Origin: an uncultured bacterium | Lineage (GTDB): Bacteria; Hydrothermota; Tepidihabitantia; SM23-42 | Direction of reading: 5' to 3' | Assembly (NCBI GenBank): GCA_965603515.1 | Contig: CBFDDH010000001.1 | Location: 80,568-144,567 of the forward strand | DNA length: 64,000 nt | Notes under the pieces: generated by a model | Told to the model about the DNA's origin: nothing | The model's database searches: none | Seen by the model: only the letters and a program-made list of their open reading frames with translations | Made by a program: the position numbers and the translations under genes | Part shown: piece by piece, positions 28,257 to 49,111 of the stretch | How the letters are laid out: every line of letters starts with the position of its first letter | Position numbering within the stretch: the first letter of the stretch is position 1

Positions 28257-28274
28257 AAATGGGACAGGTTACTT

Positions 28275-29519: not shown

Positions 29520-29537
29520 AGCAACTCCTTTTCAAAA

Positions 29538-29610
29538 TGGTCATTGGGTTAGGTTAGGAAGCTAGAAAAGAATCCAGCATCCACACCCAAACCCATTTTC
29601 CATATTCTAT
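29538..29610. repeat. family 1 element copy B
   Basis: tggtcattgggttaggttaggaagctag...atccagcatccacacccaaacccattttccatattctat; fills spacer between HADH stop and thiolase start. Confidence 0.7.
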
Positions 29611-30948
29611 TTATACGTAGTCATTTATCGGTCCGTATAACCAATAAAATCCATTCGTTAAAACCGCATTGACATTCTCAGCCGAAACCGCAACGCCATC
29701 ACTGACCAACTGTTCACCTATCACCTTTGTCCTTTTGAGAAAATCGACCGCGAGCTTTGCACCGAGCGTATCCATTTTCTTCAGTTTGGCAAAATGACTC
29801 TGCAGAGCCTCTTCTTTCTTAGGGTTTATCAGGAGGGCTTTCCATGAAACAGAATCTTCCGGTAGGGGCCCGATCTTGGCATCAGTTTTCTCATTCCACT
29901 TGTCACTCAGCATGAAATACTCTTTCTTGCTGAAATTATAGATACCCACCGGACGATTCCTCTCATACTTAAGGAAACCATCTTTTTGGGAACCATCAGC
30001 ATATTGCCCCCCCAACACGTGCTGCTTGACCATCTTATCGACAAATCTACTTCTTAAGCTCTTGTCGTTAAGATGAGTTCGCATAACTCTCAGGATACAC
30101 TGGAATACATCAATCCCGACATAGTCAATGAGTTGGAAAATACCCATGGGTCTTAAGAGAAAATCCTGGGTGACTCTATTAACAACGTAAATCGCACCGG
30201 GATAGCGAAACGTGCTTTTTAGACGTTCCACTTCGCTTAGTGCGTACAAGCCGTCGCGTGTAAAATGACCATTGCCTATAAACCCGGATATATCACATGA
30301 AGGGATTAATTTTTTGCGCAACCGTTTTCCCAGCTCATCTCCAATTCTCACTAACTCTTCGACCGTGCTTTGCGCAGTTATGACCTCGACTAAACGCTGT
30401 ACAACAGGTGGATTGTAGAAGTGGTAGCCAATCAAACGACCATCAAGACCTGCTTGTTCATCAAGATATGAGATCGGAATACTCGACGTATTTGTTAAAA
30501 ACATGGTATCGGGAGCACATAATCTCTTCATTTTCCGGTAGATTTTTGTTTTTACCTTCTCATTCTCAACAATCGCTTCAAAAACCAGGTGTGCATCTTT
30601 GACGACATTGAGATCAGTGGAATAATTAAGCACTGATGATGCACTGTCAACAAAAGTCTCTATGATATCAGCATTCTCAATAAGATCCTGGCGTTCGCTG
30701 TATAGCGCCCTCAACTGAACACTGGATTTCTCAGCTACTTTGGTTAACTGTGTTCTCATATAACCACGTAAACTATCCAGCGCCGTTTCACTAATATCGA
30801 TAAGGTTGATTCGATACGCCTTGTCTTTGTTCTCCGCTTTTAACTTGAGCTTGGTTATCTCCTGAGCAATCATAACGCCGATACCACTACCCATTTTCCC
30901 CGCCGCACCGATAATCGCCACATTTTGCAGCCTATCATCCAATGTCAT
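29611..30948 (-). CDS. 3-hydroxyacyl-CoA dehydrogenase family protein
   Basis: 445 aa; NAD Rossmann IIGAAGKMGSGIG, HADH N-terminal and C-terminal domains plus extension. Confidence 0.7.
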   Translation of the reverse strand: MTLDDRLQNVAIIGAAGKMGSGIGVMIAQEITKLKLKAENKDKAYRINLIDISETALDSLRGYMRTQLTKVAEKSSVQLRALYSERQDLIENADIIETFVDSASSVLNYSTDLNVVKDAHLVFEAIVENEKVKTKIYRKMKRLCAPDTMFLTNTSSIPISYLDEQAGLDGRLIGYHFYNPPVVQRLVEVITAQSTVEELVRIGDELGKRLRKKLIPSCDISGFIGNGHFTRDGLYALSEVERLKSTFRYPGAIYVVNRVTQDFLLRPMGIFQLIDYVGIDVFQCILRVMRTHLNDKSLRSRFVDKMVKQHVLGGQYADGSQKDGFLKYERNRPVGIYNFSKKEYFMLSDKWNEKTDAKIGPLPEDSVSWKALLINPKKEEALQSHFAKLKKMDTLGAKLAVDFLKRTKVIGEQLVSDGVAVSAENVNAVLTNGFYWLYGPINDYV

Positions 30949-31056
30949 CTAAAACCTCCTTTTTCCTTCGGAAAAATAGATGCAGACAGATTTGCCTACC
31001 GGCAAATTAAGATGCAAACGGATTAGATTTGATAAAAATTCCGTCTGCATCCTTAA

Positions 31057-31845
31057 TTATCCGTTTGAATCTAAAGCCCACTTGGGCTTTCGCTTTTCCA
31101 GAAAAGCCTTCATGCCTTCTTTCGCTTCATCAGTAGAGAAAAGAATACTGAAGGCTTCCATTTCATAGGAATTCGCCGTTGTAAGATTTGCATCAATACC
31201 GCGATTGATCACGGTTTTGGCAACACGCACTGCAGTTGGACCAACCGCTGCTATTTTGTTTGCGATATCCTTTGCTTCATCCATGAGTTTATCAAAAGAA
31301 ACAACTCTATTTACTAAACCTATTCTCAACGCCTCCTGAGCGTCAATGAGATCGCCCGTGTAAATAAGCTCTTTTGCTTTTGCCGTACCCACTAATCTGG
31401 CAAGGCGCTGTGTTCCAGCATGCCCGGGGATCAAACCAAGTTTCACTTCAGGCTGACCTAATTTCGCCTTTTCAGAAACAATCCTTATGTCACAAGCCAT
31501 TGCAAGTTCACATCCCGAACCAAGAGCATAACCATTCACTGCCGCAATAACTGGTTTCTCCATATTTTCGATGTAGGATAAAACACGCTGACCGATTCGA
31601 CTGTATTCCCGGGCCTTAAAGACATCCATCTCAGATAAACGAGCGATGTCTGAACCTGAGACAAACGCCTTACCTTCACCAGTTATAATGATGACATAGA
31701 TGCTGTCATCTTCATCGAAACCCTGCATTGCCTTTTCGATCTCAAGTATTGTCTCCACGTTTACAGCATTCAAGACATCGGGCCGATTGATCTTGAGAAT
31801 CCCCAATCTGTCTTCATTTTCAACAATTATGTTATTAAAGGACAT
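31057..31845 (-). CDS. enoyl-CoA hydratase (crotonase)
   Basis: 262 aa; crotonase fold with oxyanion-hole segments AAVNGYALGSGCELA and catalytic Glu residues. Confidence 0.8.
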   Translation of the reverse strand: MSFNNIIVENEDRLGILKINRPDVLNAVNVETILEIEKAMQGFDEDDSIYVIIITGEGKAFVSGSDIARLSEMDVFKAREYSRIGQRVLSYIENMEKPVIAAVNGYALGSGCELAMACDIRIVSEKAKLGQPEVKLGLIPGHAGTQRLARLVGTAKAKELIYTGDLIDAQEALRIGLVNRVVSFDKLMDEAKDIANKIAAVGPTAVRVAKTVINRGIDANLTTANSYEMEAFSILFSTDEAKEGMKAFLEKRKPKWALDSNG

Positions 31846-32953: not shown

Positions 32954-33451
32954 TTATTTCTCCTGCTCCAATTCCACTAATGGCTTAAGGGCTTCAACCT
33001 GATCACCTTCTTCATAGTTAATCCTTTTGACAATACCATCCCGCGGCGCGCGCAATTCATTTTGCATCTTCATTGCTTCAACTATCGCGAGCGTGGTTCC
33101 TTCCTTGACATCATCGCCAACCGCTACCATAACCTTCACTAGTAACCCAGGCATTAACGACTGCACACTATCACCCTTTTGAACCTGAGCACCAGCTCCT
33201 TTGAATACATTCCCTCTTTCCAAAACAAGCAAATAATAATCTCCGTTAACTGCCAAATATATAATATCTCCAGCTTGTGCATAATAGATATTGTTAAGTT
33301 TTTTGTTAAGTTTGAAAGAGACTATATTATCATATCTCGAATAGTTAACGATATCATAGTCCTTTCTATCAATAGTAACCTGATAACCACCATCAGATTT
33401 CTTGATTTTCGCTGTATGGGTCTTATTTAGATGTTTGAATTTATATTCCAT
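32954..33451 (-). CDS. biotin carboxyl carrier protein-like (biotinyl domain with ~90 aa N-terminal extension)
   Basis: 165 aa; C-terminal EAMKMQNEL biotinylation motif; 3 nt downstream of IscU gene stop. Confidence 0.7.
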   Translation of the reverse strand: MEYKFKHLNKTHTAKIKKSDGGYQVTIDRKDYDIVNYSRYDNIVSFKLNKKLNNIYYAQAGDIIYLAVNGDYYLLVLERGNVFKGAGAQVQKGDSVQSLMPGLLVKVMVAVGDDVKEGTTLAIVEAMKMQNELRAPRDGIVKRINYEEGDQVEALKPLVELEQEK

Positions 33452-33595
33452 AAACGATTAAATCTCAAAACCCAAGTATCAAAAACCAAACAATACCTAA
33501 ATTCCAATACCGAATTTTCTTTTTTATTTTTAAGTTTAGGATTTTGGTCATTATTAATTATTTGTAATTTGGGATTTGTAATTTGGAACTTGCCC
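33452..33595. repeat. family 2 AT-rich element
   Basis: aaacccaagtatcaaaaaccaaacaatacctaaattccaatacc ... aagtttaggattttgg ... tttgggatttgtaatttgg. Confidence 0.5.
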
Positions 33596-35104
33596 CTAGT
33601 GTCCACATATTTCCCAATGACCCAATTCTTGCCATGGAGTCGTCGTGTGGCGAACCTGCGCCGATTTGGCGAGGGTTTGAACAGCAACCACTGCGCTTCT
33701 TGTTATCTTTACCAAAGAAGCAGCAACTAAAGCCTCCGTTATCTTATCATGTTGAGGGATCAGAGCTTCCTCATTATCATCAATAAAATGCGTATCGTAT
33801 TCGCCAGTTATGAACTTCTCTGTATCCACGATGCGTTTCAAAAAGCCGATATTGGTTTTAATACCGAGGATAATATAGTTTTCCAAGGCTTTGGACATAC
33901 GGGCGATAGAGATTTCTCTTGTCTCAGCCAAGGTTATCAATTTAGAAAGTATCGGATCATAATGGGGCGGCACATCCCAGCCTTGATATATCCCTGAATC
34001 TACTCTGATACCTGGCCCACTCGGTTCAAGGAGAAACAGGATTTTGCCAGGCGACGGCATGAAGTTACTGTCCGGATCTTCAGCGTAAATACGTGATTCT
34101 ATTGCATGCCCGCGCTGACTTATGTCTTTTTGCCGGAACTCCAATTCCCCTCCGGCAGCAATCAGGATTTGATGACGGACTATATCTACACCAGTAACCA
34201 TCTCCGTAATAGGATGCTCAACTTGAACCCGCGCGTTCACTTCCAGAAAATAGAATTTCCTGTTATGGTCAACGAGAAACTCAACTGTACCAGCATTCGT
34301 ATAATCAGCAGCTTCAATAACGCTTTTTGCCGCTTCACCCATTTTAGCACGCAGAACATTATCGAGGGCTGGCGAAGGTGTCTCCTCAACTATCTTTTGG
34401 TGACGACGTTGAATAGAACACTCGCGCTCGTACAAATGCACAACATTACCATGAGTATCCCGAATAACTTGAAACTCAATATGCCGCGGGTTCTGGATAT
34501 ATTTCTCAAGGTAAACCGTAGCATCACCAAAGGCGCTCTGAGCCTCTCTCTGTCCAGCTGCAATACTGGCCTCAAGTTCCTTTTCACTACGAACAACTCT
34601 CATACCTTTACCGCCACCACCCATGGACGCCTTAACAATAACTGGGTAACCTACTTGATCCGCCATACTTCTATACGCAGCTAAATCTGCACTACTGGCT
34701 TCCATGCCCGGGATAATCGGCACATCAACCCGTTTTACTGTATTGCGCGATGCCACCTTATCACCGACAAGGATCATCGCCTTGGAACTTGGTCCGATAA
34801 AGACAATCCCAGCATCTTCACAGGCTTTCACAAACAATGCATTTTCTGCCAAAAAACCATAACCTGGATGAATTGCTTGAGCACCGGTTCGACGTGCTTG
34901 CTCAATGATAGTCTTAATGTTCAAATAGCTCGTCTGAGGCGCCGGTTCGCCAATGCAGACCGCCTCATCCATATGCCAAAGGTGGCGTGAGCTGACATCA
35001 ACCGTGGAATATACGCCGGTTGCTGCAATACCCATTTCATGGCATGCGCGGGCGATGCGAATTGCAATCTCACCACGGTTGGCAATTAGTATTTTCTTAA
35101 ACAT
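33596..35104 (-). CDS. biotin carboxylase subunit of acyl-CoA carboxylase
   Basis: 502 aa; MFKKILIANRGEIAIRIARA N-terminus, ATP-grasp domain, biotin carboxylase C-domain; C-terminal ~40 aa of ORF may be read-through of weak similarity. Confidence 0.9.
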   Translation of the reverse strand: MFKKILIANRGEIAIRIARACHEMGIAATGVYSTVDVSSRHLWHMDEAVCIGEPAPQTSYLNIKTIIEQARRTGAQAIHPGYGFLAENALFVKACEDAGIVFIGPSSKAMILVGDKVASRNTVKRVDVPIIPGMEASSADLAAYRSMADQVGYPVIVKASMGGGGKGMRVVRSEKELEASIAAGQREAQSAFGDATVYLEKYIQNPRHIEFQVIRDTHGNVVHLYERECSIQRRHQKIVEETPSPALDNVLRAKMGEAAKSVIEAADYTNAGTVEFLVDHNRKFYFLEVNARVQVEHPITEMVTGVDIVRHQILIAAGGELEFRQKDISQRGHAIESRIYAEDPDSNFMPSPGKILFLLEPSGPGIRVDSGIYQGWDVPPHYDPILSKLITLAETREISIARMSKALENYIILGIKTNIGFLKRIVDTEKFITGEYDTHFIDDNEEALIPQHDKITEALVAASLVKITRSAVVAVQTLAKSAQVRHTTTPWQELGHWEICGH

Positions 35105-35217
35105 AAATCAAGTTCTTGAAACTTGTCCCGATTTATCATTGTTGATTATATAGTATAAGTAAATCGTGGATCCCGCATAGCGGGAGGATTTGGTTCTTGG
35201 GATTTGCGTTTTGGCAT
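35105..35217. repeat. family 2-related spacer (tttgg arm only)
   Basis: ggatttggttcttgggatttgcgttttggcatc. Confidence 0.3.
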
Positions 35218-36012
35218 CTATACTTTGTTCCATTTCGGTTTTCTCTTGTCAAAAAATGCTGCCATCCCTTCCTGACCTTCATCAGAGATACGCAATCGCG
35301 CAATTACCTCAGCAGTATATTCTCTTGCCTTATCAAAGGGCATCTGCGCAACATTGCGCAATAACTCCTTGCATTTAGTGATCGCCTCTGGACCACTGGA
35401 TATTAATCTACTGACCAGTTCGTCAACATATTTATCGATTTCTTTTAACTCAACGACCGCATTAACCAACCCGGAATTAAATGCCCTTTTGGCGGTCAAC
35501 CTTTCACCGGTTAAAAAGAATTCACGACATTTACCTTCACCGCATTTTTTCATTACGTAAGGTGAAATGCATGCCGGAATAAGACCTATTTTCACTTCGC
35601 TGAAACTGAACTTGGCTTGGTCTGCAGCAATGGCAATATCGCATACTGCAACAAACCCAGTGCCACCACCAATTGCGACACCGTTAACTTGAGCGATTGT
35701 CGGTTTTGGTGAAGTATAGATTTTATAAAACATGTCAGCTAGTTTTAAAGACCCTTTCAGATTATCTTCATAAGAATAATCCTTGACCCGGCGCATCCAG
35801 TTCAGGTCAGCGCCCGCACAAAAAGACTTACCTTTACCAGTTAGAATGACCACCCGTACGTCGTTGTTCTCGGCGATACAGTCAAAAACCTCAATCAACT
35901 CCTTTATCATTATGTCATTGAAGGCGTTATGAACATCCGGACGGTTGAAAGTCACCTTTGCTACTTTGTTTTCGATATCATACAAAAGTGTCTGCAGGTT
36001 TTCTCCTCGCAT
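35218..36012 (-). CDS. enoyl-CoA hydratase/isomerase (methylglutaconyl-CoA hydratase-like)
   Basis: 264 aa; crotonase fold, oxyanion hole region VNGVAIGGGTGF. Confidence 0.7.
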   Translation of the reverse strand: MRGENLQTLLYDIENKVAKVTFNRPDVHNAFNDIMIKELIEVFDCIAENNDVRVVILTGKGKSFCAGADLNWMRRVKDYSYEDNLKGSLKLADMFYKIYTSPKPTIAQVNGVAIGGGTGFVAVCDIAIAADQAKFSFSEVKIGLIPACISPYVMKKCGEGKCREFFLTGERLTAKRAFNSGLVNAVVELKEIDKYVDELVSRLISSGPEAITKCKELLRNVAQMPFDKAREYTAEVIARLRISDEGQEGMAAFFDKRKPKWNKV

Positions 36013-36090
36013 AAACTATATCCCCCTATTTCTTAATTACGAATTTCAAATCAGAAATGCCAAATTGAAGCATTGAGGCTTTGACATTTG

Positions 36091-36420
36091 TCATTGATTA
36101 TCTTCTCCTAGGGTTTTTGTTCGAGTCGGCTCAACGAGCAAAATCCAGGCAGGTTTTTTTGCACGCGAACGGTGCCGCGTCCCCTTTTCTACCAGAAAAC
36201 CTTCATTCTCTCTGAGCTCGACTGCGCCTTCTTCTGTATCAATGAAAATCTTGCCTTTGAGTACTAAAAAGAATTCATCCTCATCGCGATGCGTATGCCA
36301 GTTGTAAACACCATGGATTTTTGCAATACGCAAAGCAGTATCATTAATATAGGCAATATCCTTAGGTTGCCACGGGTCTCTGACATCCTTAATAATATCC
36401 TTAAGTTTTATTTTTTTCAT
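36091..36420 (-). CDS. cupin domain protein
   Basis: 109 aa; two-motif cupin with His ligands (HTHRDEDEFF... H). Confidence 0.55.
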   Translation of the reverse strand: MKKIKLKDIIKDVRDPWQPKDIAYINDTALRIAKIHGVYNWHTHRDEDEFFLVLKGKIFIDTEEGAVELRENEGFLVEKGTRHRSRAKKPAWILLVEPTRTKTLGEDNQ

Positions 36421-36440
36421 TGCACCCCTTTTTGCAGTAA

Positions 36441-36540
36441 TGGTTATTGGGTTAGGGGTAAGATACTAGATTTCAAGCATCCATACCTATCTTCTATCTT
36501 TTTTTGTAGCATCCAAACCTAAACCCATCTTCTATATGTC
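36441..36540. repeat. family 1 element copy C
   Basis: tggttattgggttaggggtaagatactagatttcaagcatccata...catccaaacctaaacccatcttctatatg. Confidence 0.75.
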
Positions 36541-36542
36541 GA

Positions 36543-38150
36543 TTACATTCGGAAAATTCCAAATTTGTGGTCAGGAATTGGCGCATTGAGTGCCATGGCA
36601 ATGGCTAAACCAAGTAGCTGTCGTGTATCTAAAGGATCGATAATTCCATCATCCCACAATCGAGCAGTCGAGAAATAGGCACTTGATTCGTTCTCGTACT
36701 TAACCAAGATGGGGCTTCTTATTTCTTCTATCTCTTTAGGCATAGGCTCTTCACCCTTTTTCGTCAAAGCCCTCACTTTGATATCAGTCAAAACACTTGC
36801 AGCTTGTTCACCACCCATGACACAAATCCTCGCGGTTGGCCACATCCAGAGAAGTCGCGGATCATAAGCCCGTCCGCACATGCCATAGTTACCAGCGCCG
36901 TATGATCCACCTATTATGACCGTGAACTTGGGCACCTGGGCGTTAGCTACCGCGTGCACCAATTTAGCACCGTCTTTCGCAATACCCTGATGCTCGTACG
37001 TCTTACCGACAATAAAACCCGTGATGTTCTGCAGGAAAAGCAATGGGATTTTCCTTACTGCGCACATCGTAATAAAATGTGCACCTTTTTGAGAAGATTC
37101 AGAAAACAAAACTCCGTTATTCGCAAGGATGCCGATCGGATAACCCATGATGCGGGCAAAACCGCAGACAATAGTTGGTCCGTACAATTCCTTGAATTCA
37201 TGGAATTCACTAAGGTCAACCAGACGTGCAATAATCTCTCTCATATCAAAGGTCTTCTTAGGATCCCTGGGGATAATCCCATACAGTTCTGATGGATCAT
37301 ATGCTGGCTCTTCTGGCTCTTTCCTTACAAGCGGGAATTTTGACAACACACCTAAATTCTCCACGATATTACGGGTGATTTCAATGGCGTGTTCGTCACT
37401 GAACGCATAGTGGTCAGCGACACCAGAGATACGACAATGCACATCAGCACCACCTAAATCCTCTTCACTAACAACTTCACCAGTTGCCGCCTTGACCAAA
37501 GGAGGTCCGCCAATATAGATAGTACCCACTCCTTTAACAATGACCACCTCATCACTCATCGCCGGTTGATACGCACCACCGGCAGTACAGAACCCCATAA
37601 CCACAGATATTTGAGGGATATTTTCAGCTGACATTCGCGCCTGGTTAAAAAATATCCTGCCGAAATGGAAGCGGTCAGGAAATGTTCCGACCTGGAGCGG
37701 CAAAAATATACCTCCTGAATCAACAAGATATATACATGGCAGGCGATTTTCCATTGCAATCTCTTGCGCGCGAATATGCTTCTTTATGGTTTCCGGAATA
37801 TATGTCCCACCTTTCACCGTTGCATCGTGGGCAATGACCATAACTTCTCTGTTGTGGATAACGCCGATACCAGTAATAATTGCTGCTCCTGGATGACCAT
37901 TATCATACATATCCCAAGCTGCCAACGGATTCAATTCAAGAAAGGGCGTATCCGGATCAAGAAGAAGGCGTAGCCGCTCACGCACAAAGAACTTACCGCG
38001 GTCCTTATGCTTCTTATGCATATAATCAGGACCACCCTTTTTCACCGATGCAAGGCGTTCCTTCAAAACCCTCACTGCTTCTTGCATAGCTGCTTTGTTC
38101 TCTTTGTATTCAGCGCTGTTTACGCTTACTTTTGATTCTATTTTAAACAT
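36543..38150 (-). CDS. acyl-CoA carboxylase carboxyltransferase subunit (3-methylcrotonyl-CoA carboxylase beta-like)
   Basis: 535 aa; two crotonase-like CoA-carboxyltransferase domains; N-terminal region resembles MCC beta ([27 protein letters not shown]). Confidence 0.8.
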
Positions 38151-38253
38151 AATCTCCTTCTAAATCCTAAACACTATTATTTAAACTTGATTGTTGATTT
38201 ATGAGTTTGAATCTTTGGGATTTGTTTGTCATTTGGTATTTGTAATTTGGATC
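38151..38253. repeat. family 2-related spacer (tttgg arm)
   Basis: gaatctttgggatttgtttgtcatttggtatttgtaatttggatc. Confidence 0.4.
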
Positions 38254-38643
38254 TTATGCCAATACTGCCTTATAACCATAACAAATAATCCCGGTTTGTC
38301 CTTCTGTATACAACTTTCTAAAAACAAACTTCACTTTCTTACCGATTTCAAGGTCCTTTGGCTCACAATCAACGACCTGAGTTGTAAGCCGGACACCGTT
38401 GTCTGATTCAACGATAGCGATCGCATAGGGAACCTGCGTAGCAAAGTCTGCTGGTGCTACCCTGATCATTGTATAAGAAACAATTGTTCCAGTTTCTGAC
38501 AACTTTGTTTTATCAAATCCTTTGGACCCGCAAGCCGCGCATACCAGGCGGGGAGGAAAAAACAATTTACCACATTTCTTACACTTGGCAGCTTCGAGCC
38601 GGTATCTCTGAGGCATCTCTCTGTGATATCTCGGTGATGGCAT
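38254..38643 (-). CDS. DUF35 Zn-ribbon/OB-fold protein (thiolase/HMG-CoA synthase partner)
   Basis: Start at MPSPRYH with SD AGGAGG; CKKCG...CAACG zinc ribbon followed by OB fold. Confidence 0.7.
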   Translation of the reverse strand: MPSPRYHREMPQRYRLEAAKCKKCGKLFFPPRLVCAACGSKGFDKTKLSETGTIVSYTMIRVAPADFATQVPYAIAIVESDNGVRLTTQVVDCEPKDLEIGKKVKFVFRKLYTEGQTGIICYGYKAVLA

Positions 38644-38741
38644 GTAACCTCCTTTTAGAAACAAATACCTAAAAGTCCAAAAATCCAAAATACCTAAAGA
38701 AAAATACCAAACAAATCTTAGGCATTTAGGTGTTTAGTTAT
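38644..38741. repeat. family 2 AT-rich element
   Basis: aaatacctaaaagtccaaaaatccaaaatacctaaag ... cttaggcatttaggtgtttag (latter shared with 42360-42382). Confidence 0.5.
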
Positions 38742-39890
38742 TTATATTAGTTTGAATATATGTGTCACGGATGATGCTCCTGAACCACCCATATTCTGAG
38801 TCAATCCTATCTTTGCGTTCTTCACCTGACGCTTGCCAGCCTTGCCACGTAACTGTTCAACCACCTCAACAACTTGCGCAATACCAGTAGCACCAACCGG
38901 ATGCCCCTTTGATTTCAAGCCGCCCGATGGGTTGACTGGAATCTTACCTTCCAAAGCGGTATTCCCCTGCTCTGTAAAAGGACCACCTGTGCCTTTTTCA
39001 GTAAAACCCAATTCCTCAATAATGCAGATCTCGGCGATCGAGAAACAATCATGGACCTCAGCCACATCAATCTCTGATGGCTTAACACCAGCCATCTTAT
39101 AGGCAACCTCACCTGATACTTTAACCGCTTTCAAAGCAGTTATGTCTTCGCGACTGTGCAGGGCAAGTGTATCAGTGGCCGCACCTGAACCGAGTATCTT
39201 AACCAACGGTACTTTCAGCTGCTTGGCAAAATCAACTGATGTGAGAACAACGCATGCTGCGCCATCAGAAACCGGTGAACTGTCGAGCACCGTCAGCGGA
39301 TCAGCAACCAATGTCGCATTCATGACTTGTTCAAGCGTGACTTCTCTTTGGAATTGGGCATTGGGATTCATCGCACCGTTATGGTGATTTTTTACTGATA
39401 CTGCAGCCAACTGCTCCCTCGTTGTGCCGTAGCGATGCATATGGGCTCGAGCGATCAAAGCGTAAAGGCCAGGAAAAGTCACGCCTTGATACACCTCATA
39501 TTCCTGATCGGCTGCCGTAGCAAGCGCGTAAGTAGCATCAGCGCCGTCATTCATCTTTTCAACACCACCGACCAAAACTACATCACTATGACCTGAAGAA
39601 ATTTCAAAAAGACCGAGTCTCAACGCCATACCACTTGAACAACACGCTGATTCAACACGCATCGCTGGTATCGGAGCCACGCCCAGATAATCCGCCATCA
39701 AAGCACTGATGTGTTCCTGACCAACAAAAAGTCCTGGGGTCATTGCACCAACATACATCGAATCAATATGATCCACACCTGCATCATCGATCGCCTTTAG
39801 GGCAGCTTCAACGAAGATGTCCCTCAGAGACTTTTCCCAGAGCTCACCAAATTTGGTCATTCCACAACCAATTACTGCAACTTCTCTCAT
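38742..39890 (-). CDS. acetyl-CoA acetyltransferase, archaeal-type thiolase
   Basis: Start at [15 protein letters not shown] with SD; thiolase catalytic Cys region, GHPVGATG C-terminal motif; ORF track N-extension rejected. Confidence 0.75.
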
Positions 39891-39900
39891 ACCAGCCTCC

Positions 39901-40947
39901 TTATTCGGACATTCTGATCTTACCCCGATACTTGGCGTACTGTCCATAATCAAGGTAGATACGATTGTTCTCAAGCATCTCTTTGAGCTTCGCAGCTTTA
40001 TCGCGCACTTCATCAATTCGATCAGTCATCTTAAATATAAATGCATCGCTACCTGCACCTGAACCAAAAGAAACGAGCATTATCAACTCACCTGGTTTGG
40101 CAATATCGAGCGTCGCAGAAAACCCAGTGGGTGACGAGCCTGAATAGGTATTACCCATTAATGGAACTATCCAACCCGCGTCAATCTGTTCCTTGGTAAA
40201 TCCCAATCTCTTAGCCACGGCTAATGGAAATTTACCATTTGGCATGTGGAAAATCGCGTGGGCAAAATCGCTGGGTTTATAGCCGCTTTTATCAAGAATT
40301 GCCTTTGCCGCACCCAACTCATGTTTGAAATAAGCAGGCTCGCCAGTGAATCGCCCACCATGAAGCGGATAAAACGCACCTTCTCGGCGCCAGAAATCAG
40401 GTGTATCTGTTGTATAAGAAAACGTATCCAGGACCTCAGCAATAATGCCTTCTTTTCCGAAAATGAATGCCGAACCGCCGGCTGCGGCAGAAAATTCAAG
40501 GGCATCACCTGGTGCACCCTGCGAAGTGTCAGCACCAATGGCGAGTGCATACTTTACAAGATCAGCCTTTACCAAACCATGGGCAACAAACATTGCTTCG
40601 GTGCCTGCCTTGCAGGCAAATTCATAATCCGCTATATGGACATTCGGCACAACACCCAAAGCCTCAGCCACTACAGTACCAGATGGTTTCACGGCATAGG
40701 GATGTGATTCTGAACCGATGTACAATGCGCCGATCTCAACCGGGTCAATATTAGCTCTTTTTAGCGCATTACGTGCAGCTTCCACTGATATGGTTATCGT
40801 ATCCTCATCCATTCCAGGCACGGTCTTTTCCTTGAGCATCAGACCTCGTTTTACTGTCTCGGAATCTCTGCCCCACTGATGGGCAATTTTCTCAACCTTA
40901 ATCCGATATCTTGGTAAATAAGAACCATAGCCAACAACGCCAACCAT
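39901..40947 (-). CDS. hydroxymethylglutaryl-CoA synthase (archaeal/KAS-III-like type)
   Basis: 348 aa; [17 protein letters not shown]-terminus, catalytic Cys in EFACKAGT context, typical size of archaeal HMGCS; forms thiolase/HMGCS/DUF35 trio. Confidence 0.7.
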
Positions 40948-40964
40948 TAGACCTCCTCACCAAA

Positions 40965-41070
40965 TGGTTATTGGATTTGGGTTAGGATGCTGGATATAAT
41001 CAATAAATAAAATCTAGCTTCCAAACCCATCTTCCATCTTTTTTCTAGCATCCAAACCTAAACCCATCTT
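40965..41070. repeat. family 1 element copy D
   Basis: tggttattggatttgggttaggatgctggat...tctagcttccaaacccatcttccatctttttt ctagcatccaaacctaaacccatcttctata; internal tandem sub-units. Confidence 0.75.
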
Positions 41071-42240
41071 CTATATTTTAGATAGGGCTTGTTCTAAATC
41101 AGCAATCAGATCATCAACATGTTCAAGACCAACCGATATTCTAACAAAACCAGGATTGATCCCGCACTCTCGCAGCTCTTCATCTGAATACGTTGAATGG
41201 GTCATTGAAGCGGGATGCTCAATGAGTGTATCTACGTCACCCAGACTCACTGCAAGAATGCACAACTCTACTGAGTTCATTATTGTCTTTCCAGCTTCCT
41301 TACCACCCTTCACATCAAACCCAATCATGCCACCAAAATCGCTCATCTGTTTCTTTGCTAATTCATGATCCGGGTGCGAGGTAAGACCAGGGTAATAAAC
41401 CTTCTCAATCTTGTCATGCTTTTCAAGATACTCTGCGATCTTCATGGCAGTTTCACAGTGTCGGTCCATTCTCACAGCTAAGGTCTTTAGACCACGCAGA
41501 ACAAGCCAAGCATTAAAGGGTGAATTACAGGCGCCGATCTCTTTTGCGTCTTCCCAAAGGTGATGCATGAAATCCTTTTTCCCAACGACAACTCCACCTA
41601 TGATATCGCCGTGCCCACTAAAATATTTAGTCATTGAATGAAGCACGATGTCAGCACCGAGTTCTACTGGTCTTTGGAGATATGGAGTAGCAAAAGTATT
41701 GTCAACACACAGCGGGATATTTCTGGCGTGGGAGATCTCTGAACATCGGGCGATATCGACAATCTTCAAAGTCGGATTTGCCGGCGTCTCAGTAAAGATC
41801 AAACGCGTATTCTCCTTAATACAAGAACCCAGTTGATCTGCATCTGCCGTATCACAGAATGTCACCTCAATACCCATCTTTGGTAGAATGCTCTTGAATA
41901 ATGCAAAAGTACCACCATAGATGGTATCATCAGAAACAACGTGTTCACCGGTTTTAGTTAGTGTCACAACGACGTTAAAAATGGCAGCGAGACCAGATGC
42001 AAAAACCACCCCGGCCTCAGTAGATTCCAACAAAGCAATCTTGCTTGCCAGAAGATCGGTCGTCGGATTGCTAAGTCTTGTATAGATATGACCTTTTTCC
42101 TCTTGCTTGAAAAGACGCGCACCGTGTTCAGCGTTGCGGAATGCAAAAGTCGATGTTTGATAAATCGGCGGCGCAAGAGCACCGGTTTCTTTATCAGGAT
42201 GCTGACCACCGTGTACGATCTTTGACTCAATATGCATCAT
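41071..42240 (-). CDS. Cys/Met metabolism PLP-dependent enzyme (methionine gamma-lyase / cystathionine gamma-synthase family)
   Basis: 389 aa; PLP lysine region SMTKYFSGHGD, fold-type I gamma-family. Confidence 0.75.
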   Translation of the reverse strand: MMHIESKIVHGGQHPDKETGALAPPIYQTSTFAFRNAEHGARLFKQEEKGHIYTRLSNPTTDLLASKIALLESTEAGVVFASGLAAIFNVVVTLTKTGEHVVSDDTIYGGTFALFKSILPKMGIEVTFCDTADADQLGSCIKENTRLIFTETPANPTLKIVDIARCSEISHARNIPLCVDNTFATPYLQRPVELGADIVLHSMTKYFSGHGDIIGGVVVGKKDFMHHLWEDAKEIGACNSPFNAWLVLRGLKTLAVRMDRHCETAMKIAEYLEKHDKIEKVYYPGLTSHPDHELAKKQMSDFGGMIGFDVKGGKEAGKTIMNSVELCILAVSLGDVDTLIEHPASMTHSTYSDEELRECGINPGFVRISVGLEHVDDLIADLEQALSKI

Positions 42241-42389
42241 TCCTCCCTATTGCAAACACCTAAGAATCCAAAATTCCCAAATTCTTCACCCTGAGGCTGA
42301 TCCACCTCGGGCGGAAAATTAGTGCTCTGATACACTGATGTTCTGATAACATAATATTCTTCACTTTAGGCATTTAGGTGTTTAGGTAT
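42241..42389. repeat. family 2 element with twin-hairpin core (42288-42318)
   Basis: aaacacctaagaatccaaaattcccaaa ... ccctgaggctgatccacctcgggcggaaaat ... tttaggcatttaggtgtttaggtatctagg; inverted arms about 15 bp. Confidence 0.55.
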
Positions 42390-42800
42390 CTAGGCATTTT
42401 TGTCTTTTTCGGTTAATTCAATCAAAACACCACCCATATCCTTTGGATGGATAAATGCTATCTTGTTCCCCCCCGCGCCAATTCTCGGAACCTCATCGAT
42501 CAACCGGACATTGTGACTCTTCATCTCGGCTAGTACCTTCTCAATATCATCAACCCGAAAACACAGATGATGCAATCCTTCACCCCTTTTTTCTATGAAT
42601 TTAAAAACCTGGCTCTCTTCACTTGTCGGTTCTACTAATTCAATATGGGTTCCGCTGATATCCAACTTGGCTACTTTGACCTTTTGATCCTCAACCTCTT
42701 CGAGATTCGCCAAGCCCAAACCCAACGCATCTTTCCATACATACAATCGTTCTTCAATAGATTTAACTGCGATGCCTATATGATCTAGTTTCATATTCAT
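42390..42800 (-). CDS. methylmalonyl-CoA epimerase (VOC/glyoxalase family)
   Basis: 136 aa; paired beta-alpha-beta-beta-beta modules with His/Glu metal ligands (HIGIAV...HIELVEP...HLCF...ELTE). Confidence 0.7.
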   Translation of the reverse strand: MNMKLDHIGIAVKSIEERLYVWKDALGLGLANLEEVEDQKVKVAKLDISGTHIELVEPTSEESQVFKFIEKRGEGLHHLCFRVDDIEKVLAEMKSHNVRLIDEVPRIGAGGNKIAFIHPKDMGGVLIELTEKDKNA

Positions 42801-42917
42801 CTTAAACCCTTAACACTATCATGCTGAACCATGGACTGAATTCATTTCGGGCTTGTTTCAGCATCACATCCATTGCACGTCCATTATATTTCATTGTAAA
42901 CTATCTTCTACCTACTC

Positions 42918-44213
42918 TCACAGCAATTTCCTTTTCTTCGCTTCTTCTTCAAGTACATTGCGGAAATCCGGATGAGCTATGGAAATAAGCGCCTCGGCAC
43001 GCTGGCGCAGGTTCTTGCCGTGTAAACTTACAACACCGTGTTCAGTAGCAATATAGTGAACATCTGCCCGGGTCGTCACCACACCCGCACCGACCTGTAA
43101 GGTGGACACAATCTTAGATAATTTACCACCTTTAGCAGTCGAAGGTAAAGCGATTATAGGTTTACCACCTTTGGATTGAGCGGCTCCCCTTATAAAATCG
43201 AGCTGACCACCAAAACCTGAATAGATCCTTGTGCCGATAGAATCCGAGCACACCTGACCAGTAAGGTCGACTTCTATGGCAGAATTTATCGCAACCATCT
43301 TTTCGTTTTGCCCGATTATATAAGGATGATTTGTGTAATTGCATGGGTGGGTCTCAAATACTGGGTTATTATCGATAAACTCGTAGATCTTTTTGGTTCC
43401 CAAATAAAATGTTGCAATAATCTTACCGGTATGCAGGGTTTTTTTCGAACCGGTAACTACACCAGCTTCAATAGCCTCGATTATACTATCTGAAACCATT
43501 TCAGTATGAACCCCGAGGTCTCTTCTATCAAACATAGCTTTGAGCGCGGCATTCGGGATCCCGCCGATACCCAACTGGACAGTGGAACCGTCTTCGACCA
43601 AACTAGCGACATTCGCGCCGATTTTCTTTTCAACATCGGTGAACGGAATGGGCTGCAGCTCAGGCAAGTCCTTTGAAATCTCAACTATCTTGGACACTCT
43701 TGATGCGTGAATGAACGAATCACCCAGAGCACGCGGCATCTTCTCATTGACTTGGGCGACCACGATCTTAGCTGATTCTGCAGCACCTTTTGAAGCCAAA
43801 CATTCAACACCATAACTCATAAAACCGTGTTCATCAGGTGGTGATAGATGCATAAAAGCCACATCGACCGGCAAAAGACCTTTATAAAAAAAACTAGGTA
43901 TCTCATAGAGAAAAACCGGAATATAATCTGCTTTACCAGCATTGACTGCTGCACGGTCAGCCGGACCGACGAAAAGTGAGTTGTGCCGGAAATGACCTTC
44001 CATACCGGGCTTTGACAAAGGTTCATCACCGAACAACAACACATGCGCAAGTTCAACATTATGCAGTTCATCCTTTCGCTTCTCAAGCGCATCCATCAAT
44101 CCAAAAGGAGTTGCTGCATTACCACTGACATAGATCCGGTCATTACTCTTAACAACCGAAACAGCCTCATCAATAGAACATTTTTTTCCTTTGTAATCGT
44201 CGAACCAGCTCAT
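42918..44213 (-). CDS. acetyl-CoA hydrolase/transferase family CoA-transferase (4-hydroxybutyrate/succinyl-CoA:acetate type)
   Basis: 431 aa; two-domain CoA-transferase fold, catalytic Glu region; typical of propionate/succinate CoA-transferases. Confidence 0.75.
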   Translation of the reverse strand: MSWFDDYKGKKCSIDEAVSVVKSNDRIYVSGNAATPFGLMDALEKRKDELHNVELAHVLLFGDEPLSKPGMEGHFRHNSLFVGPADRAAVNAGKADYIPVFLYEIPSFFYKGLLPVDVAFMHLSPPDEHGFMSYGVECLASKGAAESAKIVVAQVNEKMPRALGDSFIHASRVSKIVEISKDLPELQPIPFTDVEKKIGANVASLVEDGSTVQLGIGGIPNAALKAMFDRRDLGVHTEMVSDSIIEAIEAGVVTGSKKTLHTGKIIATFYLGTKKIYEFIDNNPVFETHPCNYTNHPYIIGQNEKMVAINSAIEVDLTGQVCSDSIGTRIYSGFGGQLDFIRGAAQSKGGKPIIALPSTAKGGKLSKIVSTLQVGAGVVTTRADVHYIATEHGVVSLHGKNLRQRAEALISIAHPDFRNVLEEEAKKRKLL

Positions 44214-45298
44214 ATTTTGTACTCCTCCTTGACGACACCACGCTCAACATAAATACCGTGTTTTAAAGCATAGTTCTCTTTCAAAGTAGCTTCAATACCT
44301 TTTTCAGTTAAGATCTTAAGAAACGGATAGATCCCTGAACTGATTGTGTGTGTCGCAGTTCGAGCAACGAGCGTTGTCGCGTTCGGCATGCAGAAATGAA
44401 CCACCCCGTTAACCATGTAGATAAACTGACCGCTTGGAGAGATCTTCGACGTCTCAGAACAACCACCCTGGTCAATAGAGAAATCGATCAAAACCGCACC
44501 AGGACGCATTGAACTCACCATCTCTTTCGTAATGAGAATCGGTGAGCGTTTACCTGGTTCCAGCACAGCACAAATCACAACATCGGCAAACTTGAGAAGT
44601 TTTTCTATATTGTGTTTGGTAGAAAACATTGTGGTGATCCGGCTGCCGCTGGTTTGGCATACCAGACTATCGAGCCTGTCACGAACAACATCCAGTACAT
44701 AAACATTGGCACCAGAAAAGGCAAAAGATTTTGCAGCATTACAGCCTAAAGTACCAGCACCCAGGATCACGACTTCAGCTGGTGGGATACCAGCTATGCC
44801 ACCCAGTAGAATACCTCTTCCCCCACCTGGTGATTCTAATAATCTACCAGCGATCTGCACTGAAAGTTTACCAGCTATCTCACTCATCGGTATAACGACA
44901 GGAAGTCGACCATCCTCATTTTGCATTATTTCATAACCGATAATGGTCATTTTTTTGTCCTGAACAGTTTTAACAAAAGCTTTGCGAGCGGTGACCATAT
45001 GGATAAAACCCATTAAGATCTGCCCCTCATTCATATACTGGTATTCTTCTTGTTGAGGTCTTCTGACCTTCAGGACAATATCTGCCCGTCGATAGACTTC
45101 TTCCTTTGAATAAACAATAGTTGCTCCAGCTTTTTCATAGTCTTCGTCTAGGAACCCTGCACCTTCACCGGCTTTTGATTCAACATAGAATTTCGCGCCG
45201 TATAACATAAGTTCCTTTGCTGCCATAGGAGAAAAACCAACTCTATATTCCGGCGTGTTTTTAAAAGGCGGAATTTCTCGAGGAATACCGAACATCAT
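44210..45298 (-). CDS. ald: alanine dehydrogenase
   Basis: 362 aa; AlaDH/PNT N-domain and Rossmann GAGTLGCNAA; 4-nt overlap with CoA-transferase gene. Confidence 0.75.
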   Translation of the reverse strand: MMFGIPREIPPFKNTPEYRVGFSPMAAKELMLYGAKFYVESKAGEGAGFLDEDYEKAGATIVYSKEEVYRRADIVLKVRRPQQEEYQYMNEGQILMGFIHMVTARKAFVKTVQDKKMTIIGYEIMQNEDGRLPVVIPMSEIAGKLSVQIAGRLLESPGGGRGILLGGIAGIPPAEVVILGAGTLGCNAAKSFAFSGANVYVLDVVRDRLDSLVCQTSGSRITTMFSTKHNIEKLLKFADVVICAVLEPGKRSPILITKEMVSSMRPGAVLIDFSIDQGGCSETSKISPSGQFIYMVNGVVHFCMPNATTLVARTATHTISSGIYPFLKILTEKGIEATLKENYALKHGIYVERGVVKEEYKI

Positions 45299-45317
45299 TC
45301 AAAACCTCCTTGCTAAA

Positions 45318-45425
45318 TGGTTATTGGGTTAAGGTTAGGACGCTGGATTTCAAACATCCATAGTCAAACCTGTCTTCTATCTTTCTCTAGTTTCCAAACC
45401 CATCTTCCATCTTTTTTTTAGGTAT
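45318..45425. repeat. family 1 element copy E
   Basis: tggttattgggttaaggttaggacgctggatttcaaacatccatagtcaaacctgtcttctatctttctctagtttccaaacccatcttccatctttttttta. Confidence 0.75.
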
Positions 45426-46976
45426 CTAAAATATCGATCTTTCCTTATATTCACCATGGACATCCCTTAGTGTATCTGATATTTCACCAATAGTAGCATA
45501 GGCTTTCACGCACGCCAAGATTGGTTCCATCAAGTTCTCATTGTCAATTGCTAATCCCTCTAATTTTTTCAGCAGCGATCTTACCTTTAGGTTATTACGC
45601 CTAGCTTTGACACGTTTAGTCCTTTGCAGCTGTTTCTTCAAGGTTTTAGGCGAAACCCTCATTGTTGTGAACTTCCTCCCTTTATCAGAAGACACGAACT
45701 TGTTTACGCCAATCACACTTATATCATCTTGCTCAATAGCTTTTTGATACTCATACGCACTGCGGTGAATTTCTTCCTGAAAATATCCGTTTTCAATAGC
45801 TACCAGGGCACCACCCATTGAGTCAATCTTATCCAGATAGTCGTTCACCTGCTCCTCTAATCTGCTAGTCAACGATTCAACATAGTAGGATCCAGCCAGG
45901 GGATCAATAACTTCCGGGATCTTACTTTCATAAGCGATCATCTGTTGAGTACGTAATGCCAATTTCACTGATTCTTCGGTGGGCAGGGTCAAGGCTTCAT
46001 CGCGCGAATTCGTATGGAGACTCTGGGTCCCGCCCAGAACTGCGGCGAGTGCCTGTAATGCAACACGTATCGCATTATTATCAGGTTCCTGGGCAGTCAA
46101 TGTTGAACCGGCAGTCTGAGTGTGGAATCGAAGCATCCTCGATTTTGGATTCTTCGCATTGAATCGCTCTTTCATGACACGCGCCCAGATCCTCCTGGCC
46201 GCTCTGAACTTAGCAATCTCTTCAAAAAAATTATTGTGTGCGTTAAGGAAAAATGAAATACGCGGCGCAAATGAATCCACATCAAGTCCACCCCGTTCAA
46301 TTGCATATTGCACATAAGTCATTCCATTTGCGAGTGTGAAAGCAAGCTCTTGTACTGCTGTCGCACCAGCTTCTCTTATGTGATAACCAGATACTGAAAT
46401 GGTATTCCACCTGGGCAGGGACTTACTGCAATATTTCATGATATCGACCGTAATCTTTATCGATGCTGCAGGTGGATATATGTAAGTGCCGCGCGCAATA
46501 TACTCCTTGAGGATATCATTCTGAACCGTACCGGATAGTCTCTCTTTTGGCACACCCTGCTTTTCGGCAACTGCGATATACATTGCCAAGAGAACTGCTG
46601 CGGTGGCATTGATCGTCATCGACGTACTCACCCTGTCAAGCGGTATTCCTTTAAATAATATCTCCATATCTTCAAGTGTATCAATGGCAACACCGGTCTT
46701 ACCCACCTCACCAGCGGCAAGTCTATGATCTGAGTCATAACCCATCTGGGTTGGTAAATCAAATGCAACGGATAAACCTGTCTGCCCCTGTTTCAGTAAA
46801 TAACGGTAGCGACGATTCGACTCTTCTGCAGTCGCATAACCGGCATACTGCCGCATAGTCCATAGCCGACCCGTATACATACTTGGATATACGCCGCGTG
46901 TATAAGGAAATTCACCCGGGTTACCCAAATCTTTTTTGTAGTCTATATCTTTTATGTCATCAGGAGAAAAAAGCAT
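45426..46976 (-). CDS. methylmalonyl-CoA mutase family catalytic (TIM-barrel) subunit, copy 1
   Basis: 516 aa; [34 protein letters not shown] motifs; no B12-binding domain in this polypeptide. Confidence 0.85.
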
Positions 46977-46984
46977 AATTCAGC

Positions 46985-47002
46985 GCAGTATCATTTTCAT
47001 TC
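46985..47002. repeat. 17-bp motif gcagtatcattttcattc (isolated copy between mutase and BCCP genes)
   Basis: Matches motif array flanking four-helix-bundle gene. Confidence 0.5.
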
Positions 47003-47488
47003 TATTATGATAAGTGTATCTCCAGTGTTTACGGTCTGACCTTTTTTCACTTGTATCGTCTTAACAACACCATCTCTTGGCGTTTGTATCTCGTTTTGCA
47101 TTTTCATAGCTTCGATTATGAGCAAACCTTGCCCCTCGGTGACATTGTCACCTTCTTTAACAATCACCTCGATGATCAAACCTGGCATCGCTGTTTTCAC
47201 CGCCAATTCCCGCTTTTCAGATTTGCCCGCGCTTGCCTTCATGAGTCTTCCTACTTGTTCATCAAATATCTCAACAGAGTATTCCTGGTTGTTAACAATA
47301 ATCGTGTTATCGTCAGAAAAAACAACATCGAACGGTTTATCATCAACTATCAATGTCATGCGTGAACCACGATCATCAGCTACCTCTACTCGTCTTGTCT
47401 CACCATTAAGAAAAACCCGGAATTTCTCATCCTGTCTCTCAACTTCTATCTTGATAACCTTATCGTCGACCTTAACAATATCAGCCAC
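46997..47488 (-). CDS. biotin carboxyl carrier protein-like (paralog 2)
   Basis: 163 aa; EAMKMQNEI biotinylation motif, N-terminal extension comparable to 32954-33451 product. Confidence 0.7.
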   Translation of the reverse strand: MADIVKVDDKVIKIEVERQDEKFRVFLNGETRRVEVADDRGSRMTLIVDDKPFDVVFSDDNTIIVNNQEYSVEIFDEQVGRLMKASAGKSEKRELAVKTAMPGLIIEVIVKEGDNVTEGQGLLIIEAMKMQNEIQTPRDGVVKTIQVKKGQTVNTGDTLIIIE

Positions 47489-47489
47489 G

Positions 47490-48989: not shown

Positions 48990-48998
48990 AGTTTAAAA

Positions 48999-49090: not shown

Positions 49091-49111
49091 GGCTCGCCAT
49101 AAACTAAATAC

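Follow-up and report, generated by a model that had tools for sequence, protein, structure and literature searches.

The 64,000-nucleotide stretch of contig CBFDDH010000001.1 from an uncultured, sediment-type bacterium of the Hydrothermota (Stahlbacteria/WOR-3 group), hereafter the window, carries a block of genes in which an archaeal-type thiolase/3-hydroxy-3-methylglutaryl-CoA (HMG-CoA) synthase/DUF35 trio stands next to a carboxylase of the 3-methylcrotonyl-CoA carboxylase (MCC) type. We analysed the window together with 80 related loci (numbered with L) and their 10-kb flanks. The whole region is encoded on the minus strand, and the span flagged in the original prediction (35218-40947) contains six genes, which read from high to low coordinates with the HMG-CoA synthase (HMGCS) first (Table 1). 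All six, coding for the HMGCS, the thiolase, the DUF35 protein, a carboxyltransferase (CT), a cupin and a crotonase, were found where they had been predicted, co-linear on the minus strand. The prediction needs one correction at this point: the MCC set is completed directly past the flagged span by the genes for a biotin carboxylase (BC) and a biotin carboxyl carrier protein (BCCP). The block is best explained as an eight-gene operon centred on HMG-CoA. It would consist of a liu-type module (MCC-beta CT, LiuC-like hydratase, an MCC-alpha split into BC and BCCP, and the optional cupin) and of an archaeal-type complex of thiolase, HMGCS and DUF35 protein.

Table 1. Predicted genes of the HMG-CoA block and of its surroundings in the window
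Gene product	Position	Strand	Basis
HMG-CoA synthase, archaeal type	39901-40947	minus	TIGR00748, NF003274, 6esq_I
Acetoacetyl-CoA thiolase, archaeal SCP2-type, HMGCS partner	38742-39890	minus	NF053570, PRK06064, 6esq_A
DUF35 scaffold protein (zinc ribbon and OB fold)	38254-38643	minus	PF12172 (zf-ChsH2) and PF01796 (OB_ChsH2_C), 6esq_E
Carboxyltransferase, MCC-beta type	36543-38150	minus	bit scores against PDB chains
Small monocupin, 109 aa	36091-36420	minus	PF07883
Crotonase, LiuC/AtuE-like, candidate 3-methylglutaconyl-CoA hydratase	35218-36012	minus	PF00378
Biotin carboxylase for MCC, 502 aa, outside the flagged span	33596-35104	minus	Biotin_carb_N, CPSase_L_D2, Biotin_carb_C; TIGR00514
Biotin carboxyl carrier protein for MCC, 165 aa, outside the flagged span	32954-33451	minus	PF00364, EAMKM
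Second crotonase	31057-31845	minus	Pfam
3-Hydroxyacyl-CoA dehydrogenase	29611-30948	minus	Pfam
SCP2-type thiolase	28275-29519	minus	Pfam
Biotin ligase (BirA)	27546-28256	minus	Pfam
Methionine gamma-lyase-like gene, methylmalonyl-CoA epimerase, CoA-transferase, alanine dehydrogenase	within 41071-55281	minus	Pfam, NCBIfam
Methylmalonyl-CoA mutase (MCM)-type mutase; second BCCP/BC/CT set, propionyl-CoA carboxylase (PCC) type; isobutyryl-CoA mutase (ICM)-type mutase with B12 subunit and MeaB	within 41071-55281	minus	Pfam, NCBIfam, signature residues
Fe-S/CCG oxidoreductase, EtfA, EtfB, acyl-CoA dehydrogenase (cut off by the window end)	59874-64000	minus	Pfam

The spacers within the block are 10-144 nt long. 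It had been proposed that the genes are separated only by repeat elements; this is partly right, and several spacers hold repeat families. In a terminator scan of the window, no minus-strand terminator-like site was found in the spacers. All such sites lay within coding regions, and terminator-like sites in the window amounted to about twice the shuffled mean. Since no spacer contains a minus-strand site, the arrangement is compatible with a single transcript, although it does not prove one, and no operon break is marked. A promoter scan of the window gave no excess over the shuffled expectation, and no Rfam family was found in it.

The trio is closely related to a structurally known archaeal complex. 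With the archaeal HMGCS equivalog model TIGR00748 the HMGCS scored 536 bits (cutoff 353), and it also matched NF003274. Its best PDB match was 6esq_I (455 bits, 60% identity), and in the alignment the E-C-H-N catalytic tetrad is kept and the motifs, including GNTYSG, are identical. The thiolase reached 556 bits with NF053570 (AcCoTHIOL_METTL), slightly below the cutoff of 600, and 551 bits with PRK06064. Its best PDB match was 6esq_A (404 bits, 53% identity); the ATG start corresponds to residue 1 of that chain, and the aligned protein keeps ACCS (CxS), VHDCF (HDxF) and GHPVG (GHx). The DUF35 protein matched 6esq_E best (99 bits, 43% identity) and carries a four-Cys zinc ribbon, CKKCG...CAACG. 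The residues that define a true HMGCS (E-C-H-N) and an archaeal thiolase (CxS, HDxF, GHx) are listed in PMC12960953. Since the best matches are the 6ESQ chains, the TIGR00748 cutoff is passed and the defining residues are present, the trio is a genuine archaeal-type set, predicted to form HMG-CoA, in a bacterium. Its archaeal type had been recognised in the original prediction.

The complex from which these chains come, that of Methanothermococcus thermolithotrophicus (PDB 6ESQ/6ET9), was reportedly described by Vogeli et al. in 2018. It has the same three subunits, the same motifs and the zinc ribbon, and the three genes are adjacent in the window. We infer that the bacterial proteins form a complex as well. 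Unlike the archaeal system, the trio here belongs to a bacterial host and is fused into an operon with MCC and the hydratase. Other mevalonate genes are missing nearby, the relatives use the methylerythritol phosphate (MEP) pathway, and the direction of flux may differ.

A tripartite architecture is also found in the PhlABC/MucABC acyltransferases, which are bacterial HMGS/ACAT/DUF35-like systems. There, the HMGCS tetrad and the thiolase HDxF motif are lost (PMC12960953), whereas both are kept in the window proteins. The window HMGCS scored 195 bits against the PhlABC/MucABC type and 455 against a true HMGCS. Because the catalytic tetrad is retained, a PhlABC/MucABC-type reading of the trio was ruled out.

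The CT was assigned to a class by ranking its bit scores against PDB chains. The MCC-beta structures came first (Pseudomonas aeruginosa 3u9r_B 720 bits, human MCCC2 706, Mycobacterium tuberculosis AccD1 687), above geranyl-CoA carboxylase beta (483), PCC-beta (at most 277) and the glutaconyl-CoA decarboxylase GcdA (155). By sequence, the CT is clearly of the MCC-beta type, and its similarity to these enzymes suggests specificity for 3-methylcrotonyl-CoA. The scores rule out a CT of the PCC type or of the acetyl-CoA carboxylase (ACC) type. The MCC-like assignment of the original prediction was thus upheld, as the CT does not group with ACC in the bit-score ranking. It is 33% identical to the second, PCC-type CT of the window (49573-51120).

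The BC has all three BC domains, scored 639 bits with TIGR00514 and shares 53% identity with the second BC (47490-48989). The BCCP carries the biotinylation motif EAMKM. Judged by its genes, this MCC is a full ATP-dependent carboxylase that has a BC and a BCCP to itself, apart from the PCC set of the window. Its MCC-alpha is not the usual single fused chain: BC and BCCP are each encoded by a gene of their own, and a Pfam scan revealed no BT domain in either. The split organisation resembles that of archaeal acyl-CoA carboxylases.

The crotonase gave 207 bits with PF00378. The nearest models were hydratases of the LiuC/AtuE type, with scores below their cutoffs: PRK07468, the best NCBIfam model, reached 262 bits (cutoff 350) and PRK05674, gamma-carboxygeranoyl-CoA hydratase, 257 bits (cutoff 426). 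The LiuC of Myxococcus xanthus (5jbx) was a distant match (105 bits), and identity to the second crotonase of the window is 31%. In the supplementary annotation of PMC7852524, the orthologue from Cloacimonetes is named methylglutaconyl-CoA hydratase by RAST. The nearest models are in line with the crotonase having been described as methylglutaconyl-CoA-hydratase-like, and we regard it as a candidate for this hydratase.

The cupin has a His/His/Glu/His metal motif. Its AlphaFold2 model (pLDDT 88.5) is nearest in fold to the uncharacterised monocupins 3d82 and 2i45. The gene was found in 11 MCC-linked loci, and homologues with 64-69% identity occur in unrelated neighbourhoods. Since such close homologues sit in unrelated neighbourhoods and the nearest folds are uncharacterised, we dropped the cupin from the core of the block, and for the same reasons as a candidate lyase or isomerase. 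It had been counted among the gene types of the cluster, but it is not a dependable member; it is an accessory one at most.

The MCC half of the block is similar to the Pseudomonas liu (liuRABCDE) and Bacillus yng operons, with which it shares the MCC-beta CT (720 bits to the P. aeruginosa enzyme), a LiuC-like hydratase, and a biotin carboxylase and carrier. The order of the genes, beta-hydratase-alpha, is that of the liu operon as well, where it appears as liuB-liuC-liuD. Unlike liu and yng, the operon in the window contains neither an HMG-CoA lyase nor a dehydrogenase of the isovaleryl-CoA dehydrogenase (IVD) type. Moreover, its MCC-alpha is split and has no BT domain, the cupin is inserted, and the thiolase/HMGCS/DUF35 trio lies upstream.

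The closest relatives of the HMGCS (78-91% identity) were found in metagenome-assembled genomes (MAGs) of Candidatus Stahlbacteria, WOR-3, TA06 and Cloacimonadota, and more distant ones (66-74%) in Ignavibacteria, Melioribacter, Bacteroidota, Gemmatimonadota, Planctomycetota, Acidobacteriota and others. In almost every one of the 80 loci the trio genes stand side by side. Synteny over the full block, from alanine dehydrogenase down to BCCP, is seen in L002, L004, L006 and L007/L081, and the BC is syntenic in these and in L014. Sixty loci extend at least 2.5 kb downstream of the trio, and 13 of them combine the trio with an MCC-beta-type CT (more than 60% identity, at most 3 kb away, same strand). 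Since trio and CT occur together in these loci and the full block in the closest relatives, the co-linearity is not due to chance. The block recurs in MAGs of WOR-3, Stahlbacteria, TA06, Cloacimonadota and a few others; in the supplementary data of PMC7852524, a block running from the methylglutaconyl-CoA hydratase, cupin and MCC to the HMGCS lies on the Black Sea Cloacimonetes contig NODE_1318.

In three loci (L046, L080 and L018), HMGCS, thiolase, DUF35 and MCC-beta genes, with or without cupin and hydratase, are flanked by MreBCD/PBP2/RodA, UvrD or transporter genes. Since the cassette stands among unrelated genes there, the linkage of trio and CT is the conserved core, and HMGCS-thiolase-DUF35-MCCbeta is the minimal cassette. 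In a neighbour-joining tree, which is simple, rough and based on a single outgroup, the MCC-linked trios form a basal grade and a WOR-3/Cloacimonadota clade.

The motifs for HMG-CoA lyase (GPRDGLQ), HMG-CoA reductase (HMGR; DAMGxN) and GHMP kinases (mevalonate kinase) were found neither in the window nor within 10 kb in the 80 loci, and none of the window open reading frames (ORFs) scanned matched the HMGL Pfam family. The original prediction had noted that the window is free of HMG-CoA reductase and lyase; the motif scan agrees and extends this to the relatives. The absence is local only, applying to the 64-kb window for lyase, reductase and IVD, and to the 10-kb flanks of the relatives for lyase and reductase.

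HMG-CoA is the only metabolite common to both halves of the operon, which explains why their fusion and synteny are conserved. The operon probably links acetyl-CoA with branched five-carbon acyl-CoAs. The axis from HMG-CoA through methylglutaconyl-CoA to methylcrotonyl-CoA that had been proposed for these genes is kept in our interpretation. Its continuation to isovaleryl-CoA by the acyl-CoA dehydrogenase (ACAD) and electron-transfer flavoprotein (ETF) genes is not, as the window ACAD is not of the IVD type.

We tentatively favour the view that the operon encodes the lower part of leucine/isovaleryl-CoA breakdown in an anaerobe that degrades peptides and amino acids, with the trio working in reverse in place of the lyase. 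MCC would use ATP and bicarbonate to convert 3-methylcrotonyl-CoA into 3-methylglutaconyl-CoA, which the crotonase would hydrate to HMG-CoA. The reversed trio would then split HMG-CoA with CoA into acetoacetyl-CoA and acetyl-CoA, and thiolysis would follow, so that three acetyl-CoA would be formed in total. The channelling logic of the complex would hold in this direction too, with the exergonic second step pulling the uphill first one. The situation can be likened to the reversed citrate synthase of the reversed oxidative tricarboxylic acid cycle.

Such a lyase-free end of leucine/isovalerate degradation would conserve thioesters (HMG-CoA + 2 CoA -> 3 acetyl-CoA). Starting from isovaleryl-CoA, the lyase route would give two acetyl-CoA equivalents minus one ATP for MCC, a balance of +1 that equals the excretion of isovalerate. 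The reversed route would give three acetyl-CoA minus one ATP, or +2, which is one thioester or ATP more than the lyase route. It may be this extra ATP that makes the MCC route worthwhile for anaerobes, but we give this lyase-free, thioester-conserving version somewhat less weight than the catabolic reading as such.

Several observations are in favour of a catabolic role. The surroundings are catabolic (the PCC/epimerase/MCM route, the ICM-type mutase, dehydrogenases, aminopeptidases and the ACAD-EtfBA-FeS genes), the ATP-dependent MCC is complete, and no linked lyase was found in the 80 loci. In L087 (2897-4954), a carbonic-anhydrase-like gene (Pro_CA_2), an ACAD with the canonical Glu and a 4HBT-type acyl-CoA thioesterase precede the cassette, of which the first two fit catabolism. 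ACADs also neighbour the cassette in L009, L036, L055 and L074.

Other points weigh against a reversed trio. HMGCS is regarded as practically irreversible, and to our knowledge the archaeal complex has been characterised solely in the synthetic direction. Thiolysis (about -25 kJ/mol) would make up for a large part of what the reversal of HMGCS costs, and the summed reverse reaction is estimated to be mildly endergonic, give or take about 10 kJ/mol; the literature search gave no published free-energy value for the HMGCS reaction. In myxobacteria, HMGCS is clustered with enzymes working in the opposite direction. A lyase could be encoded elsewhere in the genome, and the window has no ACAD of the IVD type. 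The thioesterase beside HMGCS in L087 is ill-suited to a thioester-sparing logic. Finally, many WOR-3 loci have the hydratase, BC and BCCP genes away from the cassette, the trio is not beside MCC in most other phyla, and in Ignavibacteria it adjoins AtuA instead of MCC.

The main rival of the reversed trio is an anabolic route similar to the Aib pathway of M. xanthus, which is possible but rather unlikely. Here the trio would make HMG-CoA from three acetyl-CoA, the crotonase would dehydrate it to 3-methylglutaconyl-CoA, and MCC would run backwards as a decarboxylase, maybe with formation of ATP. The resulting 3-methylcrotonyl-CoA would be reduced to isovaleryl-CoA, a primer for iso-branched fatty acids or a precursor of leucine. 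This route would require no lyase, which fits the missing lyase motif in the window and the 80 loci, and the trio, which keeps all its catalytic motifs, shares 43-60% identity with a complex that has been characterised in the synthetic direction alone. Biotin carboxylases work close to equilibrium, and once the enoyl-CoA is reduced the whole sequence is strongly exergonic. Iso-C15:0 lipids are common in the trio-bearing Ignavibacteria, Bacteroidota, Gemmatimonadota and Acidobacteriota. The ACAD nearby matches the AcrC model best, and enzymes of the Bcd/AcrC type are often reductive with Etf.

The M. xanthus pathway (MvaS, LiuC, AibA/B, AibC) is also the closest precedent. Its HMGCS is clustered with the enzymes that lead from methylglutaconyl-CoA through 3-methylcrotonyl-CoA to isovaleryl-CoA, LiuC acts there as a dehydratase, and HMG-CoA is likewise used outside isoprenoid synthesis. 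However, the HMGCS in the window is archaeal-type and accompanied by thiolase and DUF35 protein, an ATP-dependent MCC is found instead of the AibAB decarboxylase, an AibC reductase is lacking, and LiuC is only a distant match. We found neither a glutaconate-CoA-transferase-like pair (AibA/AibB) nor an MDR reductase (AibC) among the window ORFs, so the myxobacteria-like synthesis of isovaleryl-CoA from HMG-CoA, one of the roles first suggested for this locus, lacks its hallmarks here. A full ATP-grasp BC with BCCP would be odd for a decarboxylase, as the known routes use AibAB or a membrane-bound enzyme of the Gcd type. In addition, the operon stands amid catabolic genes, the cassette in L087 is preceded by the carbonic-anhydrase-like gene and the ACAD, and as a fermentation the route would be a poor electron sink.

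Conventional leucine catabolism of the liu type, with the gene for HMG-CoA lyase located elsewhere in the genome, is improbable. The only task of the trio's thiolase would then be to cleave the acetoacetyl-CoA formed after CoA transfer, and HMGCS would serve another purpose or an HMG-CoA/acetoacetate cycle. MCC and the hydratase are canonical for this pathway, a CoA-transferase gene is found 2 kb upstream, with synteny in relatives, and the lyase is missing only from the window and the 10-kb flanks. However, HMGCS together with a lyase would be a futile cycle that hydrolyses acetoacetyl-CoA, and it is the complete trio, not the thiolase alone, that shows the tightest and widest linkage with MCC-beta. 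Canonical liu/yng operons include the lyase, whereas its motif did not occur within 10 kb in any of the 80 loci.

Supply of HMG-CoA to the mevalonate pathway is very improbable: trio (from acetyl-CoA) and MCC/hydratase (from leucine) would converge on HMG-CoA for reduction to mevalonate and isoprenoids, as the trio is the archaeal entry to that pathway and a leucine-to-mevalonate shunt exists in myxobacteria and some eukaryotes, but neither an HMGR nor a GHMP-kinase motif was found in the window or the 80 loci. The products could include the archaeal-type ether lipids proposed for FCB-group bacteria, which, Cloacimonetes included, carry GGGPS and DGGGPS (PMC7852524, PMC6431249). On the other hand, the MEP pathway is complete in Black Sea Cloacimonetes MAGs with the block, and the mevalonate pathway is represented there by ACAT and HMGCS alone (Villanueva et al., PMC7852524). 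An isoprenoid role is unlikely in this lineage because mevalonate genes are missing nearby and the Cloacimonetes relatives with the same block use the full MEP pathway, in line with the original proposal that HMG-CoA has a use other than plain isoprenoid synthesis.

All enzyme families of the block are already known, and the fusion of the archaeal HMG-CoA complex with a leucine-type carboxylase operon is undiscussed in the literature found. Our literature search returned nothing relevant on an association of HMGCS with MCC, on syntrophic isovalerate pathways or on lyase-free leucine degradation, and these genes are unmentioned in the WOR-3 genome and isolate papers. The carriers of the fusion are uncultured anaerobes that are widespread and make no use of the mevalonate pathway. 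If the trio is reversed, it would be the second case of a supposedly irreversible Claisen synthase reversed in vivo, and it would explain how anaerobes profit from oxidising leucine or isovalerate rather than excreting isovalerate. If the trio runs forward, new phyla would join the myxobacteria as makers of isovaleryl-CoA from acetyl-CoA, and their decarboxylation step would be of another kind, possibly yielding ATP. In either direction, the result corrects the customary labelling of these genes in FCB-group MAGs as 'mevalonate pathway' genes.

The operon is embedded in a stretch of about 35 kb of genes for acyl-CoA and amino-acid catabolism. The crotonase/dehydrogenase/thiolase/biotin ligase set at 27546-31845 is syntenic in L004, L007 and L081, and the genes within 41071-55281 are syntenic in relatives as well. 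Genes for M17 and M42 aminopeptidases and glutamate dehydrogenase lie further off in the window. Directly downstream of the acyl-CoA cluster (25528-28256) are genes for biotin ligase, cob(I)alamin adenosyltransferase (CobO) and CoaBC, one for each cofactor of the cluster. The two large subunits of B12 mutases (45426-46976 and 52123-55281) differ in their signatures. One has Tyr/Arg (RQYAG, ARGTY), which we take to mark methylmalonyl-CoA mutase, and the other has Phe/Gln (RQFSG, AQKTW), presumably that of isobutyryl-CoA mutase; the latter adjoins a B12-binding subunit and a MeaB-like GTPase.

The ACAD/ETF genes had been counted as the end of the cluster and as part of its axis. This link is weak: they lie 19-23 kb upstream of the operon, past the glutaminyl-tRNA synthetase (GlnRS) gene and other unrelated genes. 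The ACAD has the canonical catalytic Glu in YEGTSEIQ, which we take to mark the butyryl-CoA dehydrogenase type and not the IVD type. Its closest models are Bcd/AcrC, with acryloyl-CoA reductase AcrC the best NCBIfam model. Because of the canonical glutamate, we assigned this ACAD to the butyryl-CoA dehydrogenase type and rejected it as an isovaleryl-CoA dehydrogenase. The Fe-S protein of the ETF cluster has no predicted transmembrane segment.

The cupin, HMGCS and alanine dehydrogenase genes are each immediately preceded by a minus-strand repeat some 110 nt long (36421-36542, 40948-41070 and 45299-45425). The copies have a mean column identity of 73% and fold into a long hairpin (-34 kcal/mol, z = -2.1). 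The repeat has no Rfam match and is essentially absent from the loci of the relatives. The window contains six copies of its core, CCAATAACCATT, where 0.5 would be expected, and each copy precedes a start codon by 16-21 nt; the further core sites are 5477-5488, 29536-29547 and 52596-52607. Six spacers (33452-33595, 35105-35217, 38151-38253, 38644-38741, 42241-42389 and 51121-51208) hold short A/T-rich direct repeats of the CAAAT/CCAAA type. These are common to several spacers and occur in both orientations (families D3, D5, D11, D14 and D17; inverted pairs I2-I5).

Small genes of the 23S-rRNA-IVP (PF05635) or PDDEXK_3 families are inserted at differing spacers of the operon in different relatives, and they look like mobile selfish insertions. 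Such sites are 49112-49498 in the window, 14546-14770 in L081 and 6046-6447 in L087, with others in L001, L008, L012 and L014. In the window, the IVP gene separates the PCC-type CT gene from the BC gene, and an inverted repeat of 21 nt and 95% identity stands on its two sides (48999-49019 and 49529-49549).

Outside the MCC-linked loci, the trio has other neighbours. In MAGs of Ignavibacteria, Melioribacter and Bacteroidota (L015-L033, L043, L050, L051, L054 and L067), it is followed by an AtuA-family protein (PF07287, 506 bits) in place of MCC. AtuA is a member of the acyclic terpene utilisation cluster; no useful description of its function was found in the literature. A small AtuA_ferredoxin-like protein (PF23544) also follows the trio in these loci, and Pcm and MiaA usually precede it. 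In the Gemmatimonadota loci L039, L060 and L065, the trio is divergent from a two-subunit 2-oxoacid:ferredoxin oxidoreductase and an ADP-forming acyl-CoA synthetase-like protein.

In the window, the GlnRS ORF and the beta-eliminating-lyase ORF upstream of it (56679-58676 and 58372-59862) overlap by about 300 nt. Because of this overlap, and because the catalytic domain begins only at residue 133, the real start codon of GlnRS probably lies a good way downstream of the ATG that is listed.

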